Shown: positions 4,280 to 52,818 of the stretch, one piece after another
How the letters are laid out: each line of letters starts with the position of its first letter
Position numbering within the stretch: position 1 is the stretch's first letter
NCBI GenBank assembly: GCA_030066905.1
Contig: JASJAR010000008.1
Location: forward strand, 42,932 to 106,931
Source of the DNA: Paracoccaceae bacterium
Lineage (GTDB): Bacteria > Pseudomonadota > Alphaproteobacteria > Rhodobacterales > Rhodobacteraceae
DNA length: 64,000 bases
Reading direction: 5' to 3'
The notes under the pieces: generated by a model
Database searches by the model: none
Told to the model about the DNA's origin: nothing
The model's input: only the letters and a program-made list of their open reading frames with translations
Made by a program: the position numbers and the translations under genes

Positions 4280-4432
4280 CCCCCTCTGTCCTGTCGCCTG
4301 AGATCGTTATCCCGTCGGCGGGCGCGGCCGCGCCACTCTCCAGAGTCTGACCCCGCGACGGTCCTTTTGCCTGAGAGATTACCGGGGCGGTTGCTCCTTC
4401 GGCCCGGGGAGAGGCACCCCCCATGTCTCCCG
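4280..4432 (-). promoter_or_regulatory. tandem glycine riboswitch (two aptamers) in the gcvT leader
   Basis: The minus-strand RNA reads CGGGAGAC...CCGGGCCGAAGGAGCAACCGCCCCGGUAAUCUCUCAGGCAAAAGGACCG, then CUCUGGAGAGUGGCGCGGCCGCGCCCGCCGACGGGAUAACGAUCUCAGGCGACAGGACAGAG. These are two copies of the GGAGAG...CCGAAGG(A/G)GCAA...CUCAGGC(A/G)A(A/C)AGGAC signature, directly 5' of gcvT. Confidence 0.8.
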
Positions 4433-4515
4433 TCGCGAGACGAGTGGCGTGTAGCGCGGCTTGCCAGCCCGCACAAGCCATTGCGAAGGCGGGCGCTTCG
4501 GGGCAGGAGGGCGCG

Positions 4516-6524: not shown

Positions 6525-6588
6525 CTTCATCTTGGCGAAAATACCGCGGGGGAGGCGCGAACGCGCCGGGGGCGGAGCCCCCGTCTCC
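6525..6588 (-). repeat. family-2 hairpin repeat, intergenic copy (gltX 3' end / MATE leader)
   Basis: The minus strand reads GGGGGCtccGCCCCC GGCGCGttCGCGCC tCCCCGCGGTATTTTCGCCAAGATGAAG: two GC hairpins plus a T-run. It matches the copy inside xdhB (43135..43191) at about 26 of the 28 nt at the AAGATGAAG end, by eye, with the same hairpin layout. Confidence 0.7.
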
Positions 6589-8397: not shown

Positions 8398-8577
8398 CGT
8401 TTTGGTCAGAATCGGGCGTTCGTTTGCCCGCCCCGATCCACAGCCCCCCCCCGCGTCCCGGGCTCGACCCGGGACCTCGATAGGCTTGGCTCTCCATTGG
8501 ATCGAGGCCCCGGATCAGGTCCGGGGCGCGTTTCGCCAAGGGCTGCCGGTGGAAGACCAGAGCGTCTCCTTCAGGCC
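8398..8577 (-). repeat. family-1 MITE-like double-hairpin repeat, copy 1
   Basis: The reverse complement aligns end to end with copies at 14044 and 18266. Shared parts are the hairpins CCCCGGAcctgaTCCGGGG and GTCCCGGGtcgagCCCGGGAC, the palindromic centre CCTCGAT...ATCGAGG, and imperfect TIRs (TTTTGG(C/T)C(T/A)GAA...). Confidence 0.8.
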
Positions 8578-8659
8578 AGTCACCCGCCTGGCCAAATGAA
8601 ACCCGCTTGCGCTGGTGGCGCTAACACCGCAGATAGGGAGTGCTGAGGAGGCCCGCGCC

Positions 8660-12419: not shown

Positions 12420-12556
12420 GGTGCCTCCGGATGGATCGGGCGAGACTTAGCAGATGGTGGCGGGAGGAAAAGGCCGCACCCGAAACGTGTTGCGGGGCTT
12501 CGGGGGGGCCGGTAGATTGAGACCCGAACCGGGAAACGGGTGGGCGAGCGGTAGAG

Positions 12557-13996
12557 ATGACAGCATTCGCGACAGCGCTTCGGCGGGCCGGGGCGACAGG
12601 GATTGTGATCGTTCTGGCGGCGGGTATCGCCGCGGCGCAATCGGACGAGGTCGTCACCAAGCAGTATGACGACGGCGGCGTCTATCAGGGCACTTTCCGG
12701 GACGGCAAGCAGCACGGCACCGGCACCTACCGGCTGCCCAACGGCTATGTCTATACCGGCGACTGGGTGGACGGCGAGATTCGCGGCCAGGGCCGCGCGG
12801 AGTTTCCGAACGGCTCGGTCTACGAGGGCGAATTCGCCGCCGGCAAGCCCGAGGGCCGGGGCAAGATCACCTTCGCCGACGGCGGCACCTACGAGGGCGA
12901 ATGGGTCGATGGCAAGATCACCGGGACCGGCGTGGCGATTTACGCCAACGGGGTGCGCTATGAGGGCGGGTTCGTCGATGCGCTCCATGACGGACAGGGC
13001 CGGATGGAAAGCCCCAACGGCTATGTCTACGAAGGCCAGTGGGCCGGCGGGATCAAAGAGGGCAACGGCCGGATCACCTACCCGGACGGTGCGGTCTACG
13101 AGGGCGACCTGGTGCGCGGGGCGCGCGAGGGGCGCGGCACGCTGACGATGCCCGACGGGTTGACCTATGTCGGCGAATGGGCCGACGGACAGATCAACGG
13201 CACGGGCCGGCTGACCCAGCCAAATGGCGATGTCTACGAGGGCGAGCTTGTCGACGGCAAACGCCAGGGGACGGGCCGGGTGGTCTACGCCAACGGCGAT
13301 GTCTATGAAGGCACTTTCGAGAACGACCGCCGCCACGGCACCGGAACCTTTACCGGCACCGACGGCTATCTCTACACCGGTGCCTGGGTCGAAGGCCGGA
13401 TCGAGGGCGACGGCACGGTGACCTACCCCGACGGGTCGGTCTATGTCGGCACGTTCAAGGACGATCTCGCCGACGGGAGGGGCATGATCACCTATCCCGA
13501 CGGCAACACCTATGAAGGCGAATGGAAGGCCGGGGTGATCGAGGGCCAGGGCAAGGCGACCTATTCCAACGGGCTCGTCTACGAGGGCGGGTTCCGCAAC
13601 GCGCAGATGCACGGGGAAGGCACGATGACCTTCGCCGACGGCTACCGCTACGAAGGCGAATGGCAGGACGGCCAGCGCTGGGGGACGGGCACGGCCACCT
13701 ATTCCGACGGCACGGTTTACGAGGGCGGCTTCGTCGCCGGCCAGCGCGAGGGGATGGGGACGATCACCATGCCCGACGGCTTCACCTATACCGGCGCCTG
13801 GGTCGACGGCGAGATCGAAGGCCAAGGGGTAGCGACCTATGCCAATGGCGATGTCTATGAGGGGATGTTCGCCGCCGGCAAGCGCCAGGGGGAAGGGACG
13901 ATCCGCTATGCGAGCGGAGAGGTCCAGAGCGGGACCTGGACGAATGGGGCGTTGACGGAGCCTGCGGAGGAAGAACCGGCGACCGAGAGCCAGTAG
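12557..13996 (+). CDS. secreted MORN-repeat protein
   Basis: 479 aa with signal-like N-terminus MTAFATALRRAGATGIVIVLAAGIAAAQS. This is followed by about 19 tandem 23-aa units of the form Y.G.(W/F).(D/N)G...G.G.... Confidence 0.85.
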   Translation: MTAFATALRRAGATGIVIVLAAGIAAAQSDEVVTKQYDDGGVYQGTFRDGKQHGTGTYRLPNGYVYTGDWVDGEIRGQGRAEFPNGSVYEGEFAAGKPEGRGKITFADGGTYEGEWVDGKITGTGVAIYANGVRYEGGFVDALHDGQGRMESPNGYVYEGQWAGGIKEGNGRITYPDGAVYEGDLVRGAREGRGTLTMPDGLTYVGEWADGQINGTGRLTQPNGDVYEGELVDGKRQGTGRVVYANGDVYEGTFENDRRHGTGTFTGTDGYLYTGAWVEGRIEGDGTVTYPDGSVYVGTFKDDLADGRGMITYPDGNTYEGEWKAGVIEGQGKATYSNGLVYEGGFRNAQMHGEGTMTFADGYRYEGEWQDGQRWGTGTATYSDGTVYEGGFVAGQREGMGTITMPDGFTYTGAWVDGEIEGQGVATYANGDVYEGMFAAGKRQGEGTIRYASGEVQSGTWTNGALTEPAEEEPATESQ

Positions 13997-14010: not shown

Positions 14011-14050
14011 GGCCTGAGGCTGCGGAGAGGGGGGCTCAGACCTCGGTTTT
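14011..14050 (+). terminator. putative rho-independent terminator of the MORN gene
   Basis: GGCCTGAG (14011-18) pairs with CTCAGACC (14035-42) at 7/8, followed by TCGGTTTT. The T-run may belong to the adjacent repeat TIR. Confidence 0.45.
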
Positions 14051-14222
14051 GGCCTGAACGGGCCGTTCGGGTCTTGCTCCGGCAGCGCTTGGCGAAACAC
14101 GCCCCGGACTTGATCCGGGGCCTCGATCCACCGGAGTGCCAGGCCTGTCGAGGTCCCGGGTCAAGCCCGGGACGCGGGTTACTTGGGGTCGGGGCGCGCA
14201 GAATGAACGTCCGCTCCTGGCC
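14044..14222 (+). repeat. family-1 MITE-like repeat, copy 2 (reference orientation)
   Basis: cggttttggcctgaacgggccgttcgggtcttgctccggcagcgcttggcgaaacacGCCCCGGActtgaTCCGGGGCCTCGATccaccggagtgccaggcctgTCGAGGTCCCGGGtcaagCCCGGGACgcgggttacttggggtcggggcgcgcagaatgaacgtccgctcctggcc. Confidence 0.85.
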
Positions 14223-14529
14223 GGGACCGACGACCTAGACTATTCCCCAACGCCCTTTGCCGCCGGCCCGGGTTCTCCGGGGGCGGTCTGGGGCTGCCGG
14301 TTCGGCGTGTCTGGGAGTGGTCAGGGCTTGTGAAACAGTGGATCCACTGTAACCGGGTACCATCTCGCCCGGGTTTTTGCCCGAACGAAGCGGCCCCTGG
14401 GCCTTCCAAGCGATGCGCATCGCGGGGAGATGTATCGCCCGGAAAGGTAAATGGGTGCTGATGGCACCGCACGGTGGGGCGGCCGGGAGGCATCCTGCAC
14501 CCCTGCCCGTCGACTGCCGGCAGCGCCCG

Positions 14530-18265: not shown

Positions 18266-18444
18266 CGGTTTTGGGCTGAAGCGGACGTTCGGGTCATGCT
18301 CCGGCAGCTCTTGGCGAAACACGCCCCGGACTTGATCCGGGGCCTCGATCGACCGGAGCGCCAAGACTATCGAGGTCCCGGGTCAAGCCCGGGACGCGAG
18401 TCACTTGGGGTCGGGGCGCGCAGAATGAACGCCCGCTCAAGGCC
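18266..18444 (+). repeat. family-1 MITE-like repeat, copy 3
   Basis: Near-identical in layout and length to copy 2, with the same two hairpins, centre and ends. Confidence 0.85.
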
Positions 18445-18524
18445 AACGACGACGTCCAAGTCATCCCGCACCGATTGCACGCTAGGGGCTTTTCAACGCC
18501 GCCGGGGTCTGTATGCTCCGTCCC

Positions 18525-20255: not shown

Positions 20256-20266
20256 GGCATTACCCC

Positions 20267-20377
20267 CTGCCCCGGGCTTGGCCCTGGGCCTTGATCCTAT
20301 GGAGCGCTCCATTTGTTCGAGGCCCCGGGTCAAGCCCGGGGCGGGGTTGCAAGGTCGGCGGCGTCGCGCCAAAGGCC
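20267..20377 (+). repeat. family-1 repeat, copy 4 (left arm missing, diverged)
   Basis: ctgCCCCGGGcttggCCCTGGGCCTTGATcctatggagcgctccatttgtTCGAGGCCCCGGGtcaagCCCGGGGcggggttgcaaggtcgg... starts 12 nt after the leuA stop. Confidence 0.65.
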
Positions 20378-27105: not shown

Positions 27106-27296
27106 GGCCGGGCGGGCCTTCCCGCTCCGTCTCTGCCCCCGCTTTCCCCCGAACACACCGCGTCCCGGGCTTTACCCGGGACATCTATGAGCTCTTCGCT
27201 CCGGTGCGCCCGGGCCCCGGATCACGTCCGGGGCGTGGATCGCTCAAAGGGCAACCGGCGCGGTCCTTCGTCGAGCGGCAATACCCGTCCAAGGTC
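27106..27296 (-). repeat. family-1 repeat, copy 5 (diverged arms)
   Basis: cgcGTCCCGGGctttaCCCGGGACatctatgagctcttcgctccggtgcgcccggGCCCCGGAtcacgTCCGGGGCgtggatcgctcaaagggc... begins right after the stop at 27105. Confidence 0.7.
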
Positions 27297-33938: not shown

Positions 33939-36900
33939 CTACGCCACGTCTTCGACCGCCGCCACACCGGGGAGCGACTTCAGCGCCGAGCGGATCTCGG
34001 GCGTCATCGGCCAGCCGTCGCCGAGCTCGATATCGACCTCGCCGACGGGCAGGCCGAGAGGCGCGATCCGCACCTCGCCCCGGCCCCTGACGGCGGCATC
34101 TTCGCGGTAGCGGTCGAGGAGCGAGCGCACCGAGACGGCGCCTTCGGGCGCATCGATGAAGACCCGCACCGCCATGTCGCCAGCATCGGCGGCTACCGTG
34201 TCGAGCGGAGTGACCGAGCGGGCCACGGGGTCGAAGCCGCCGTCGTTGAAGCGGGCCTCCAGCGTCATCACCACGCGCAGGCCCTGTTCGAAGACCCTGC
34301 GCGACGCCTCGAAGTCTTCGGGGAACAGCGCCATGCCCGGCACCGTGAGCGTGGGGTCGGAGATCGTCATCCGGAAGAACCGCGTCCCCCGGCCCGATTT
34401 CCGGTCCTGGAGCCCCGAGACCATCACCCCGACCCGGCCCACGGCCCCGCCGTCGCGCTCGGCCTTGTCGCGAAGCTCGGCCAGCGTCGTGCAGCCCTTC
34501 CGCTTGAGTGCCGCGAGATAATCGTCGAGCGGGTGGCCGGAAAGGTAAAAACCCACCGCCTCGTGCTCGGCTTCCAGCCGGTCGGAGGCGAGCCAGTCCT
34601 CGGCCGGCGAGAGCCGCGGCTCGGGGAGGTCGTCGCCGGCCTCGCCGAAAAGCGAGACCTGGGCCGAGGCGCGCTGGTCGTGGATGGCGGCCGAATAGGC
34701 CGTCAGCGCATCGAGGCTCTGGAAAACCCGGGCGCGGTTCGGGTCGAGCTCGTCGAAGGCCCCGGCCCTGCTGAGCATCTCAAGCGGCCGCTTGCCGATG
34801 CGGCGAAGGTCCACCCGGCGGGCGAAGTCGAAGAGCGTGGCGAAGGGTTTGTCTGGGGTAGCCCCGCCCTGGACCTGATCCGGGGCCTCGTGCGGACCGT
34901 CGCGCCCGGTGGCACGGGGCCCCTGCTCTGCGGCCGGGGCGGGGCGAGCTTGGCGGCGGGCCTCGACGATGAGCCGCATCGCCTCGACCCCGACATTCTT
35001 CAACGCCCCCAAAGCATAGACGATTCTGCCGTCCGCGACCGAGAACATCGCCTCGGAGCGGTTCACGCAAGGCGGCACGATCTCGATCCCGAGCCCGCGC
35101 CGCACCTCCTCGGCATAGACGGCAAGCTTGTCGGTCAGATGGAGGTCGCAGTTCATGACGCCGGCCATGAACTCCACGGGGTGGTTGGCCTTGAGCCAGG
35201 CCGTCTGGTAGCTGACCACGGCATAGGCCGCGGCGTGGGATTTGTTGAAGCCGTAATTGGCGAACTTGTCGAGGAGGTTCCAGACCTCCAGCGCCTTCTT
35301 CTCGTCGACGCCGTTATCCTTGGCACCTGCGAGGAATTTCGGGCGTTCGGCATCCATCGCGGCCTGGATCTTCTTGCCCATTGCCCGGCGCAGAAGGTCC
35401 GCACCGCCCAAAGAATAGCCGGCCATCTTCCGGGCGATCTCCATCACCTGTTCCTGGTAGACGATGATGCCTTGCGTCTCGTCGAGGATGGGATCGATCA
35501 ACGGGTGGATGCTCTCGCGCTCGGCCCGGTCGTTCTTGACGTCGCAATATTTCGGGATGTTCTCCATCGGCCCCGGGCGGTAGAGCGCGACGAGGGCAAC
35601 GATGTCTTCGATTGAGGTGGGTTTCATCCGCACCAGGGCATCCATCATGCCCGAGCTTTCCACCTGGAAGACGGCGACGGTCTTGGCGGCGGAATAGAGC
35701 TCGTAGGTCTTTTCGTCGTCGAGCGGGATCGCGTTGATGTCGAGTTCAACTCCGCGTTCGGCCAGAAGGTCGAGGGCGTTCTGGATCACGGTCAGCGTCT
35801 TCAGCCCGAGAAAGTCGAACTTCACAAGGCCGGCCTGCTCGACCCATTTCATGTTGAACTGGGTTGCGGGCATGTCCGAGCGGGGGTCCTGGTAGAGCGG
35901 GACGAGCTTGTCGAGCGCGCGGTCGCCGATCACCACACCGGCGGCATGGGTGGAGGCGTTGCGCAAGAGACCTTCGACCTGGGCGCCGTAGGTCAGGAGC
36001 CGGTCGACGACCTCTTCGGCCTTGGCCTCTTCGCGAAGACGCGGCTCGTCGGCCAGGGCTTTCTCGATGGAAACGGGCTTCACCCCTTCGATGGGGATGA
36101 GCTTCGAGAGCCGGTCGACCTGGCCGTAGGGCATTTGCAGCACCCGGCCGATGTCGCGGACGGCGGCTTTCGACAGGAGCGCGCCGAAAGTGATGATCTG
36201 GCCGACCCGGTCGCGGCCGTATTTCTCCTGCACGTAGGCGATGACCTCTTCACGGCGGTCCATGCAGAAGTCGATGTCGAAGTCGGGCATCGAGACCCGT
36301 TCGGGGTTGAGGAACCGTTCGAAGAGGAGGCCGTAGCGCAAGGGGTCGAGATCGGTGATGGTGAGTGCATAGGCCACAAGCGAGCCCGCGCCCGAGCCCC
36401 GGCCGGGGCCGACGGGGATGCTTTGGTCCTTGGCCCATTTGATGAAGTCGGCGACGATCAGGAAGTAGCCCGGAAAGCCCATGCCTTCGATGACACCGAG
36501 TTCGTAGTCGAGCCGGGCCTCGTACTCGGCGAGGGGTGCGGCGGGCTCGATGGCCGCAAGGCGGGCGGTCAGGCCGTCGCGGGCCTGTTTGCGGAGTTCC
36601 TCGACCTCGTTTTCGGCGAATTTCGGCAGGATCGGGTCGTGGCGGGAGACGGCAAAGGCGCAGCGGCGGGCGATTTCGATGGTGTTCAGGGTTGCCTCGG
36701 GGAGGTCGGCGAAGAGGGCGGCCATTTCGGCGGGCGACTTGAAGTAGTGCTGCGGCGTGAGGCGGCGGCGGGGGGCCTGCTGGTCGACGTAAGCCCCTTC
36801 GGCGATGCAGATGAGCGCGTCATGGGCCTCGTACATCGAGGGCTCCGGGAAATAGACGTCGTTGGTGGCCACGAGCGGGAGGGCCTTTTGGTAGGCCAGC

Positions 36901-40258: not shown

Positions 40259-40411
40259 GTCCCCCCGCCCTGGATCGAAGATGCACCCGTTCCGGGCTCT
40301 GCGCGGGACCTCGATCTGCCCAGCGCGCGATGGGATCGGGGCCGCGGATCGGGGCCGGGGCAGGTCGCGCCGGGCGTCGTCGGCCTCAAGCGAGAGCACC
40401 AGAGACCGGCC
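40259..40411 (-). repeat. family-1 repeat, copy 6 (degenerate)
   Basis: cccgttccgggctctgcgcgggacCTCGATctgcccagcgcgcgatgggATCGGggccgcggatcggggccgggg..., with the arm ...caagcgagagcaccagagaccggcc. It is recognisable only by alignment to copy 1. Confidence 0.45.
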
Positions 40412-41989: not shown

Positions 41990-44409
41990 GCGTGGCGAAA
42001 CCGCTGCCGCATGACGCAGCACGGCTCCATGTGACGGGGGCGGCGCGCTATGTCGACGACATTCCGACCCCGGCAGGCACCTTGCATCTGGCTTTCGGGA
42101 CCTCCGAGATCGCCCATGGGCGGATCGTGGCGATGGACCTCAACGCCGTTCGGGCCGCTCCGGGGGTCGCTCTGGTGGTGACGGCCGAGGACTTGCCGTT
42201 CGCCAACGACGTCTCCCCGTCGCCCGCGCCCGAGCCGCTTCTGGCCACGGGCGAGGTGCATTTCATGGGCCAGCCGCTCTTTTTGGTCGTGGCCGAGAGC
42301 CATCTGGCGGCGCGGAAGGCGGCGCGGTTGGCGAAGGTCGAGTACGAGGAACGCCCGGCGATCCTCAGCATCGACGAGGCATTGGCGGCGGGGTCGCGGT
42401 TCGAGGAAGGCCCCCGGGTCTATGCGCGCGGCGATGCCGCAGGGGCGATTGCCAAGGCAGTCCATGTGCTCGAGGGCTCGGTCGAGATCGGCGGGCAGGA
42501 GCATTTCTACCTCGAAGGCCAGGCCGCCCTCGCCTTGCCGCATGAGGGGGGCGATATGGTCGTTCACTCCTCCTCCCAGCATCCCACCGAAATCCAGCAC
42601 AAGGTGGCCGATGCGCTGGGTCTGCCGATGAACGCGGTGCGCTGCGAGGTCAGGCGGATGGGCGGCGGGTTCGGCGGCAAGGAGAGCCAGGGCAATGCGC
42701 TGGCTTGCGCCGCGGCGGTCGCGGCCCGGGCGACCGGGCGGGCCTGCGCGATGCGCTACGACCGCGACGACGACATGGTAATCACCGGCAAGCGCCACGA
42801 TTTCCGCATCGATTACCGGGTCGGGGTGGATGCCGGGGGACGGATCGAGGGGATCGAGTTCGTCCAGCTTTGCCGCTGCGGTTGGAGCATGGATTTGTCC
42901 CTGCCCGTCGCCGACCGGGCGATGCTTCATGCCGACAATGCCTATTATCTCCCAAACGTGCGGATCGAGAGCCACCGGCTTCGGACCAACACCCAGTCGG
43001 CCACGGCATTCCGGGGGTTCGGCGGGCCCCAGGGCATGTTCGGGATGGAGCGGGTGATGGACCATATCGCCCATGCGCTCGGGATGGACCCTGTCGCGCT
43101 TCGGCGGGCGAATTACTATGAGGCGGCCCGGGGAGGGGGCGCTGCCCCCGCGCCTGACGGCGCCCCCCGCGGTATTTCGGCCAAGATGAAGACCGGAGCG
43201 GAGCTTACAAGCCGCGCCGCCGCGCCGGGGACGGGGCGACGGTATGGGGGGGCCTATTCGCCGGAGAATGCCCGGCCGCGGACCCTGACCCCCTATCACA
43301 TGGAGGTGGAGGATTTCATTCTCCATGACCTGACGGAGCGGTTGCTTGCAACGTCGGACTACCGGGCGCGCGCCGAGGCGGTGGCGGCGTTCAATGCCGG
43401 AAATGCGGTGTTGAAAAAGGGGATCGCCTTCAGTCCGGTGAAGTTCGGGATTTCGTTCACGCTCACCCATCTCAATCAGGCGGGTGCCCTCGTCCACGTC
43501 TACCAGGACGGGTCGGTCCACATGAACCACGGCGGCACCGAGATGGGTCAGGGGCTCTTTCAGAAGGTCGCCCAGGTGGCCGCGGCGCGGTTCGGGGTGG
43601 AGGTGGACCGGGTGAAGATCACCGCGACCGATACCGGCAAGGTGCCGAACACGTCTGCGACGGCGGCCTCGTCAGGCTCGGACCTTAACGGGATGGCGGT
43701 GCAGGCGGCCTGCGACACGATCCGCGACCGGCTGGCGGCCTTCGTCGCCGAGGGATACCAGGCCGACCCGGCTACGGTGCGATTCGAGGACGGGAAGGTC
43801 CATGTGGGCGGCGAGGCGCTGGCCTTCGAGGCGGTCGTGAAGGACGCCTATATGAACCGGATCTCGCTCTCGGCCACCGGCTTCTACAAGACCCCGAAGA
43901 TCGTCTGGGACCGGATCAGGGGCGAGGGCCGGCCGTTCTTCTACTTCGCCTATGGGGCGGCGGTGACCGAGGTGGTGATCGACACGCTGACCGGGGAGAA
44001 CCGGATCTTGCGCGCCGACATTCTCCACGATTGCGGGGCGAGCCTGAACCCCGCGCTCGATATCGGCCAGATCGAGGGGGGCTATGTGCAGGGCGCGGGC
44101 TGGCTGACGACGGAGGAACTCGTGTGGGACGGCAAGGGCCGGCTTCGGACCCATGCGCCCTCGACCTACAAGATCCCCGCCTGTTCGGACCGGCCGGACA
44201 TCTTCAACGTGGCACTTTGGGACGGCGCGAACCGGGAGGAGACGGTCTATCGGTCGAAGGCGGTGGGCGAGCCGCCCTTGATGCTGGGGATTTCGGCCTG
44301 GTTGGCGCTGTCGAACGCCTGCGCCGCCGCGGGGCCCGGCTGGCCCGACCTGCAAGCGCCGGCGACACCCGAGGCGGTGCTGGCCGCTGTGACCCGGGCG
44401 CGGGCGTGA
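41986..44409 (+). CDS. xdhB: xanthine dehydrogenase molybdopterin-binding subunit
   Basis: The GTG at 41986 overlaps the xdhA stop and gives [27 protein letters not shown]. Also contains GGGFGGKES and the C-terminal [11 protein letters not shown]. Confidence 0.92.
43135..43191 (+). repeat. family-2 hairpin repeat embedded in frame in xdhB
   Basis: GGGGGCgctGCCCCC GCGCCtgacGGCGC CCCCCGCGGTATTTCGGCCAAGATGAAG is translated as [19 protein letters not shown]. It is the reverse complement of the intergenic copy at 6525..6588. Confidence 0.6.
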
Positions 44410-45353: not shown

Positions 45354-45380
45354 GGGACCGGGAAAGTTCCCGGGCCGTCC

Positions 45381-45562
45381 CGGTTTGGCCTGACGCGGAG
45401 GTTCCTCGGTCCGCGCCGATCTTAAGACCGTCGCGTCCCGGGCCTGACCCGGGATCTCGACAGGCTTGGCACTCCGGGACGTCGGGGGCCCGGATCAGGT
45501 CCCGGGCGTGGGTGGTCGGTTGCCGCAGGCGGCACCGCGGCCCTGTTGAGGCCAAAAGAACG
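45381..45562 (-). repeat. family-1 repeat, copy 7
   Basis: cggtttggcctgacgcggaggttc...cgcGTCCCGGGcctgaCCCGGGAtCTCGAcaggcttggcactccgggacgTCGgGGGCCCGGAtcaggTCCCGGGCgtgg...ttgaggccaaaagaacg. Confidence 0.8.
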
Positions 45563-52492: not shown

Positions 52493-52652
52493 GGCCTTTT
52501 GCCCACGCTGGCCGAACCCGGCGACATGCGCCCCGGACGTGATCCGGGGCCTCGATTGGCTTGGCACTCCGGTGGGTCGGGGCCCCGGATCACGTCCGGG
52601 GCGTGTATCGCTAGGGCTTTGGAACGCGCAGAATGAACGTCGGCCCAAGGCC
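52493..52652. repeat. family-1 repeat, copy 8 (symmetrised variant: both hairpins CCCCGGAygtgaTCCGGGG type)
   Basis: gcGCCCCGGAcgtgaTCCGGGGCCTCGATtggcttggcactccggtgggTCGGGGCCCCGGAtcacgTCCGGGGCgtg...gcgcagaatgaacgtcggcccaaggcc. Confidence 0.75.
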
Positions 52653-52818
52653 GATTCTGTTGAAAAACTCGCTGTTTGGACGGCAGCGGCCAGTTTGGCG
52701 GAACATCCTCCTGATAAATGGTGATTGAGCGAACGACGCTTACTAGGCGGCCCCTTGCAAGAACACCGTTCCAAGTTTTCGAGTGAAATTTCGGGTTGGA
52801 GAGTTTTTCAACACAATC
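52653..52818. repeat. 166-bp element bounded by 18-bp terminal inverted repeats (MITE-like, different family)
   Basis: GATTCTGTTGAAAAACTC (52653-52670) matches the reverse complement of 52801-52818 (GATTGTGTTGAAAAACTC) at 17/18. The interior has lower GC and no ORF. It abuts the end of family-1 copy 8. Confidence 0.55.

Follow-up and report, generated by a model that had tools for sequence, protein, structure and literature searches.

An in-frame insert in dnaE of a Paracoccaceae bacterium is very likely a copy of the host's own REP-type palindromic dimers

We analysed 64,000 nt of DNA from a Paracoccaceae bacterium (contig JASJAR010000008.1 of assembly GCA_030066905.1, positions 42,932 to 106,931 of the forward strand), called the window hereafter, in which the essential dnaE gene, encoding the alpha subunit of DNA polymerase III (Pol III alpha), carries 99 extra bases. 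Very likely, these bases are a copy of a repetitive extragenic palindromic (REP)-type dimer that belongs to the host's own intergenic family. The family is present in the window in at least eight intergenic copies, elements of about 89 nt delimited by a repeat-finding search of the 64 kb (Table 1), and the same search on its own placed 34852-34890, within dnaE, in the family (group D8). In each element, two units of about 25-30 nt face each other in inverted orientation across a spacer of about 20-30 nt, and together they fold into one long hairpin. Each unit is itself a small stem-loop, CCCCGGA-TCAGG-TCCGGGG or the variant TCCCGGG-TCAAG-CCCGGGA, with a stem of 7-8 bp and a loop of 5 nt. The 19-nt unit pattern, with up to two mismatches allowed, occurs 13 times in the window where 0.13 occurrences are expected, and one of them is 34867-34885. 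All eight dimers are intergenic on a gene map based on the G+C content of third codon positions, with a Pfam check on one doubtful case. The palindromic unit of about 20-40 nt, the inverted pairing of units and the many, mainly extragenic copies that characterize REP dimers are therefore all found here, the copies being counted in the 64-kb window.

To compare the dnaE segment with this family, an nhmmer profile and a covariance model were built from the eight intergenic copies, the dnaE copy being left out. The profile retrieved 34860-34891 at 17.6 bits (E 1.9e-4), the top match in the window outside the family, and the whole dnaE element on the opposite strand at E 0.063; the best background score, in 1.62 Mb of related Rhodobacterales DNA, was 11.5 bits. 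The covariance model (26 pairs, filters off) matched the dnaE site over its full length (model positions 1-97) with 26 bits on both strands, the best background score being 15.3. In Smith-Waterman (SW) alignments the insert scored 54 with the REP unit consensus and 28 with its reverse complement (null 14.9 +/- 2.2), and none of 2000 dinucleotide shuffles scored as high in either case; therefore, both inverted units are present in the insert. As single-stranded DNA, the insert folds into a long imperfect hairpin (-35.7 kcal/mol, z -3.9, 0 of 200 shuffles) of the kind that the intergenic copies form, and as RNA it reaches -63.8 kcal/mol (z -2.5). Unit A is near consensus, with 31 of 32 bases agreeing with the pattern that retrieved seven REP dimers from metagenomes (see below). 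Unit B retains about 80% identity, with one indel and a decayed central part, and pairs with unit A in the fold. The sequence-only reading that preceded this work had already derived the insert from the core of the repeat, on the basis of a 23/25 block match and of ccggtgg, ggggcccc and ccggggcg blocks in a shared order. The block match is read directly in both sequences (34866-34890 against 52530-52554) and the three blocks are legible in the dnaE insert and in the family copies, while the shuffles for each arm and the profile score establish that the nucleotide match is significant. With the profile, the covariance model, both arms and the hairpin in agreement, this derivation is well supported.

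One must nevertheless consider that the loop might have grown by slippage or duplication of G+C-rich Pro, Gly and Ala codons in a 67% G+C genome, and that it resembles a palindrome by chance. Indeed, this site is a hotspot of indels in Rhodobacterales, where 34 of 80 loci have variants of +1 to +12 residues, and several inserts at this site are not significantly similar to REP units, even as decayed ones: the shorter inserts of L044, L025, L030, P0004 and P0006, and the 26-codon insert of P0002. However, dinucleotide-preserving shuffles never matched the observed score for either arm, the profile score lies above anything in 1.6 Mb of related G+C-rich DNA, the covariance-model match is full length and 11 bits over background, and the block order, the spacing and the inverted symmetry are those of the family. 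A chance resemblance is thus extremely improbable, and we consider this explanation close to refuted.

The gene itself is a regular dnaE. The dnaE1-type Pol III alpha is defined by PHP, polymerase core, fingers and helix-hairpin-helix (HhH) domains, an internal beta-clamp motif and a C-terminal OB region. The product encoded in the window has Pfam matches to PHP, DNA_pol3_alpha, DNA_pol3_finger and HHH_6, bears a QVSLF motif, and both of its halves align to the structures 5fku and 2hpi; it is 100% identical to MDJ1007621.1 (P0001 in our protein set), from a metagenome-assembled genome (MAG) assigned to Paracoccaceae. The insert comprises 34 residues (845-878) between ...AMRLIVEAR and DKPFATLFDFARRVD, where the relatives with the shortest form carry a lone Gly, and the net gain over the empty form EAR-G-D-KPF is 33 codons (99 nt). 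As its length is a multiple of three and the frame used holds no stop codon, the insert should be read through in translation, adding 33 residues among which Pro, Gly, Ala and Arg abound. The 33 or so extra codons reported earlier, in a length divisible by three that keeps the frame, were thus correctly described in coordinates and sequence: alignments of relatives give +33 codons and the gene is a single uninterrupted open reading frame (ORF) of 1182 codons. An intein or a split gene was ruled out by this continuous ORF and by the size of the insert, just 33 residues. An assembly artefact was ruled out as well, independent datasets having inserts at the same site.

Table 1. The dnaE gene, its insert and the intergenic dimers of the family (window coordinates)
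Feature	Position	Strand	Evidence
dnaE, DNA polymerase III alpha subunit, 1182 aa	33939..37487	minus	single unbroken ORF (translation); Pfam domains
in-frame insert, codons 845-878 (RQARPAPAAEQGPRATGRDGPHEAPDQVQGGATP)	34854..34955	minus	alignments with 80 loci and 119 proteins, sibling empty-site DNA
REP unit A, well preserved: CGCCCtGGACCTGATCCGGGGCCTCGTGCGG; coding strand gives PHEAPDQVQGG	34865..34895	+	1 mismatch to 19-nt pattern; nhmmer; SW
spacer of about 17 nt between inverted units, with CCGGTGG block common to copy 52528-52616	34896..34912	.	hairpin apical loop
REP unit B, decayed inverted partner, one indel: CACGGGGCCCCTGCTCTGCGGCCGGGGCGGGG; coding strand gives APAAEQGPRA	34913..34944	+	SW, fold, covariance model
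intergenic REP dimer, between Zincin_1 gene and pfkB kinase gene	8453..8541	minus	repeat search, nhmmer, Pfam, covariance model
intergenic REP dimer, within longer conserved element 14044-14238	14099..14187	+	repeat search, nhmmer, covariance model
intergenic REP dimer, within longer conserved element 18266-18460	18321..18409	+	repeat search, nhmmer, covariance model
intergenic REP dimer, 7 nt past a stop codon; CCCCGGGTCAAGCCCGGGG-subtype units	20262..20350	+	repeat search, fold, unit pattern
intergenic REP dimer	27160..27248	minus	repeat search, nhmmer, covariance model
intergenic REP dimer, degenerate	40287..40375	minus	repeat search, nhmmer, fold, covariance model
intergenic REP dimer	45433..45521	minus	repeat search, nhmmer, covariance model
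intergenic REP dimer, best preserved (copy 8 of the sequence-only reading), near-perfect 35-nt arms	52528..52616	+	repeat search (I15), fold z -8.9, covariance model

We then asked where the insert lies in the polymerase. The alignment to solved Pol III alpha structures breaks at the insert: in E. coli, ...IIEARNK(855) is followed by F(859)RELFDL (5fku), and the Thermus enzyme reads ...EERERGGP(914)F at this site. The insert splits the Pfam HHH_6 profile at position 50/51 of 90, and it lies between the two helix-hairpin-helix motifs of HHH_6, where E. coli and Thermus have a turn of 3-4 residues. The short separation of the two flanking segments in E. coli had been rightly noted before (EARNK-GGY-FRELFDL in the alignment to 5fku). 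The same reading had expected a linker after the HhH/beta-binding region, which is not the case, as the site is the connector between both HhH motifs of HHH_6 (E. coli 855-859). The HhH domain of Pol III alpha binds duplex DNA. In an AlphaFold2 (AF2) model computed from a 49-sequence alignment, residues 846-884 form a low-confidence coil between two helices, and the insert has a predicted local distance difference test score (pLDDT) below 50, a result consistent with a loop at the insert. Altogether, the element resembles the Rickettsia palindromic elements (RPE) in being an in-frame insertion in a functional gene, at a position that would be exposed to the solvent.

The insert is restricted in its distribution among relatives. 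We surveyed the site in 80 GTDB Rhodobacterales loci, in the 119 closest proteins and in 125 broad DnaE representatives (50% clusters). The Rhodobacterales loci have +0 residues in 46 cases, +1 to +4 in 29 and +8 to +12 in five, that is 0 to +4 in 75 of 80; the site is empty in 100 of the 119 closest proteins, and the broad representatives show the minimal turn in 116 of 125, with a largest insert of +16. The turn between the HhH motifs appears as an indel hotspot in Rhodobacterales and is nearly invariant in other bacteria. A recurrent +4 variant of the loop, (K/N/Q)-VDG-V/R-(D/E)KPF, is found in 23 of the 80 Rhodobacterales DnaE (e.g. L011, L016, L018, L026, L038, L047), and a +9 variant, RR(S/T/A)DP...(S/P)D, is common to various unrelated genera. 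In the clade around the window DnaE (84-87% identity), the site is empty or short: P0003 and P0005 are empty, P0006 has +4, P0004 +9 and P0007 +11. The REP family is similarly confined. Six contigs of sibling lineages, covering about 130 kb around dnaE, contain no REP unit of the family, against eight dimers in the 64-kb window; therefore, the family was expanded or retained in the lineage of the window. The family profile and the unit pattern, run over 81 related loci, found no copies except a unit in the dnaE of Mangrovicoccus algicola.

Two metagenomic relatives have longer inserts. The closest one, P0002 (L081), has +26 residues at the same site, forming an unrelated peptide. The second, P0008, is a metagenomic protein of 80% identity, known as a protein-level assembly without a DNA record, which has +29 residues with RRVPAGEPGPRSEGRGRPHEAPDQVRGGQAVG; 19 of the 30 aligned insert residues are identical to those of the window. 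Its insert includes PHEAPDQVRGG, in which EAPDQVRGG is what the unit consensus GAGGCCCCGGATCAGGTCCGGGGCGG gives when translated directly. Judging from these alignments, the P0008 insert is clearly homologous to that of the window at the protein level. Moreover, the decayed arm has derived features common to P0001 and P0008 (PAxExGPR, where the consensus reads APDLIRGL), which points to one insertion event. In a neighbour-joining (NJ) tree, P0008 falls at the base of the clade, yet its insert is the most similar to that of the window. P0008 and P0121 are nearly identical to P0002 around the insert and in the C-terminal third, and are the most divergent members of the clade N-terminally, a mosaic that suggests recombination within dnaE or a chimeric protein-level assembly.

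These observations raise the possibility of a different history, in which the insert-bearing dnaE segment was recombined in from a relative, or in which an old insertion at the base of the P0001-P0008 clade has since been mostly deleted or overwritten. The basal position of P0008 together with its very similar insert, the shared PAxExGPR features, the C-terminal third of P0008 that is closer to P0002 than to P0001, and the fact that hairpins are prone to deletion all speak for it. However, the tree is a simple NJ tree and P0008 is possibly chimeric, and an old neutral insert should not remain one mismatch from the consensus in one arm. We therefore regard this history as possible, though clearly the less probable one; it concerns the past of the insert rather than its nature, and is compatible with its being a REP-type copy of the host's family.

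As to the origin of the insert, we propose that the element arrived by the family's own spreading, either through transposition of a single-stranded hairpin or through microhomology copying. The insert would then protrude as a flexible loop from a turn normally of 3-4 residues and be tolerated there, its peptide presumably having no function and drifting under near-neutral evolution. Several points weigh against this scenario. No transposase turned up when the window was scanned crudely for HUH/Y1 motifs, and comparison with the empty sites shows no target-site duplication at the borders of the insert; the comparison set contained no polymorphic empty allele of the same species, so that mobility is inferred. 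Of the "mobile hairpin element" of the sequence-only reading, the hairpin (z -3.9) is thus confirmed and the mobility is left as an assumption. The DNA of the P0002 insert is not significantly similar to the window insert or to the REP unit (p about 0.1-0.5). Furthermore, neither one old insertion nor simple independent ones account for a close relative with an unlike insert and a more distant one with a very similar insert. This pattern could be explained by recombination within dnaE, repeated loss, homogenisation with genomic copies or a chimeric P0008, and as a protein-level assembly without DNA, P0008 may indeed be chimeric. Finally, the AF2 model is poor (mean pLDDT 55), so that the exposed disordered loop is deduced from the alignment to solved structures and from composition.

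The insert might instead have been kept for its peptide, which could for instance make an additional contact to DNA, to the clamp or to another replisome protein, the repeat origin of the insert then being incidental. The domain concerned binds duplex DNA and the insert has several Arg, P0001 and P0008 share 19 of 30 insert residues including the identical PHEAPDQV block, and Di Nocera et al. (PMC3733652) remark that intragenic REPs are over-represented, for reasons left unexplained, in genes of replication and repair. However, the conserved block is the exact consensus of the DNA repeat, and thus requires no selection at the protein level. Moreover, the closest relative, P0002, has an unrelated peptide and the other siblings have none, the composition suggests disorder, and the segment is a coil in the AF2 model. 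Such an exaptation is therefore very unlikely in our view. We give just as little credit to a role of the hairpin in dnaE as DNA or RNA, for example in pausing, in mRNA stability or processing, or in the binding of a protein. The stem is still strong in both DNA (z -3.9) and RNA (-63.8 kcal/mol, z -2.5), and REPs elsewhere bind gyrase and stabilise mRNA (reviewed in PMC3733652), but a recent insertion would look alike, the centre of unit B is decayed and the siblings do without the insert; the insert is represented by a single DNA sequence, hence no covariation signal can be obtained.

The dnaE loop of Mangrovicoccus algicola (L036; DnaE about 70% identical) reads EAR-GGGEAPGQARGGTG-KPF and contains a lone near-perfect REP unit, GAGGCCCCGGGTCAGGCCCGGGGCGGG (L036:12580-12625), which encodes EAPGQARGG. 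This unit matches the window copy at 20323 at 26 of 27 bases, is the sole exact match to the pattern in 81 loci (chance expectation estimated at about 0.002-0.005), and has an SW score of 49, reached by none of 1000 shuffles. It is of the GGGTCA(A/G)GCCC subtype, and the dnaE units of the window are of the GGATCAGGTCC subtype; many taxa between Mangrovicoccus algicola and the window lineage have an empty site. Because the subtype differs and the intervening taxa are empty, an independent insertion is the simpler reading, and, from these comparisons, the site was probably struck more than once. The L036 unit is flanked by direct CGGGGCGG, the upstream sequence being GCG CGG GGC GGC and the end of the unit itself CC CGG GGC GGG. 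Many empty sites read GCGCGGGGCGAC and hold the terminal CGGGGCG of the repeat, a 7-mer common to the site and the repeat end, which could have served as microhomology for the insertion and possibly as a targeting cue. This loop may be the most permissive spot in the essential dnaE gene, or a preferred target. We tentatively raise the broader idea, which we consider rather unlikely, that REP-type palindromes have repeatedly landed in the inter-HhH turn of DnaE across Alphaproteobacteria, with the window MAG, P0008, Mangrovicoccus algicola (other subtype) and possibly the RPE-4/RPE-6 site of Rickettsia as candidates. If true, it would point towards targeted insertion or selection for decorating the replicase, beyond passive tolerance.

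The family extends to other genomes. A metagenome scan with a back-translated PHEAPDQV[QR]GG pattern yielded seven intergenic tight REP dimers, on contigs of 61-70% G+C, that read CGCCCCGGAC(C/T)TGATCCGGGGCCTC...CCCCA(C/T)GAGGCCCCGGATCA(A/G)GTCCGGGGCGG; the same scan, looking for P0008-like dnaE DNA, recovered no dnaE. Plasmids of Marinovum algicola, Roseovarius sp. and Salipiger abyssi carry unannotated (intergenic) copies, which BLAST found with the consensus dimer; BLAST of a 107-nt window copy against plasmids had given no match. The metagenome and plasmid copies indicate that the family is thus widespread in Rhodobacterales-like bacteria. A literature search by repeat sequence strings gave no match. 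In the window, some dimers are nested in a longer element (about 130-195 nt) that is conserved and itself palindromic, with the outer motifs ggttttggcctgaacgggccgttcg and cgcgcagaatgaacgtccgctc (14044-14238, 18266-18460, 8450-8578, 45373-45510 and 52516-52653). The dnaE copy and those at 20262 and 40287 consist of the core dimer only; therefore, the family is composite. A second inverted repeat pair, 6525-6571 and 43145-43191 (47 nt, 79% complementary), starts with CTTCATCTTGGCGAAAATACC; as the CTTGGCGAAA motif likewise occurs beside REP dimers, at 14087 and 18309, the pair may represent another related repeat family. An Rfam scan of the window gave no match at the repeats and detected only a tandem glycine riboswitch, whose two aptamers lie at 4284-4442 on the minus strand (RF00504, 65 and 37 bits). 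A gene on the plus strand, 12521-13996, has a periodic repeat of 69 nt (23 residues) of the YxNGDVYEGxF type, resembling MORN repeats, which explains the direct-repeat families D1, D3, D4 and D7.

The case has several implications. Protein-coding palindromes in frame, best known from the reduced genomes of Rickettsia, occur also in marine Alphaproteobacteria that are free-living and G+C-rich, once more in the replicative polymerase. The inter-HhH connector of DnaE appears to tolerate at least 33 foreign residues, which is of use when Pol III alpha is to be tagged or engineered. With the insert and the Mangrovicoccus case side by side, one may ask in a small natural system if REP-type repeats pick their sites or are merely filtered by selection. 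For annotation, the repeat origin accounts for an odd low-complexity segment in an essential dnaE gene.

How does this element compare with known systems? Rickettsia palindromic elements were reportedly described by Ogata et al. in 2000 and 2002, including RPE-4 and RPE-6 within Rickettsia dnaE. Both systems have a short palindromic repeat in frame in a functional, essential gene, dnaE in each case, and of comparable size (114 bp for the R. japonica dnaE copy against 99 bp in the window), and in both, differing repeat subtypes occupy one site in different species. In contrast, the repeat sequences are unrelated, A+T-rich with an ATGAC motif in Rickettsia and G+C-rich CCCCGGATCAGGTCCGGGG in the window, and a reduced intracellular genome is opposed to a free-living high-G+C Paracoccaceae host. 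The window repeat belongs to none of RPE-1 to RPE-8 by sequence, and is thus RPE-like in behaviour, yet no RPE. The likeness had been drawn by the sequence-only reading and is apt, RPE/REP units in Rickettsia dnaE being on record (PMC3733652, PMC3767692). Matsutani et al. 2013 reported that spotted-fever rickettsiae carry RPE-4 (114 bp) in dnaE and that R. felis has RPE-6 at this very position, modelled the RPE residues as solvent-exposed on E. coli Pol III alpha 2HNH and discussed a hotspot reading (PMC3767692). Di Nocera et al. 2013 split REPs into GTAG- and CGTC-tagged superfamilies and showed that intragenic REP units and dimers encode 20-30 residues, many of them in replication and repair genes, including a CGTC-4 unit in R. 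conorii dnaE (RC1211, residues 853-861/1181) and dimers in dnaE2 of other species (PMC3733652). Compared by residue number only, the R. conorii residues and the window insert (845-878/1182) are numerically adjacent.

The REP, BIME and REPIN elements are repetitive extragenic palindromes and inverted doublets mobilised by RAYT transposases. The window family shares with them units of about 25-30 nt that each fold into a 7-8 bp stem and a 5-nt loop, inverted units that form a long hairpin with a short spacer, many intergenic copies located mainly downstream of genes, and a family common to related genera. Unlike them, it has no GTAG tag, and a crude motif scan of the window saw no RAYT gene; some copies lie within the longer palindromic element of about 130-195 nt, and a copy in a coding sequence is unusual for classical REPs. 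The CGTC-tagged REPs are mainly alphaproteobacterial, with stems of 8-9 bp, loops of 4-5 nt and a 3-nt tail that is mostly CCA; most dimers are HH, with the tags outside, the class has no known dedicated transposase, and dnaE and dnaE2 are among the genes with intragenic copies (PMC3733652). The window family agrees with them in its 8-bp stem, 5-nt loop, outward tags and host taxon. The class ends in CGTC (or TGTC/CCTC), a tag that only some units of the window carry: five of the eight right-hand units start with CGTC (GCGTCCCGGGCTTGACCCGGGAC), and the other units, including the left-hand ones and both in dnaE, start with CGCC or TGCC. However, CGTC-tagged REPs have almost invariably a complementary A/T at the first two stem positions (PMC3733652), whereas the window stems are all G/C at the first positions and the tail is CTC, not CCA. 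We therefore do not file the family under this class, from which it is set apart by the class description rather than by a consensus figure. Bacterial MITEs (miniature transposable elements with inverted repeats), such as Nezha in cyanobacteria and those of Coxiella (PMC5896051; reviewed in PMC10969869), are likewise small non-autonomous repeats that extend or interrupt ORFs and can be translated, but they have terminal inverted repeats derived from insertion sequences (IS) and a target-site duplication; the dnaE borders show no duplication, and no related IS was seen. An in-frame palindrome in dnaE is already known from Rickettsia, and the window case is a good new example rather than a new phenomenon. 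What is new in this clean example is an unrelated G+C-rich family in a new lineage, together with evidence of a second insertion in the same loop.

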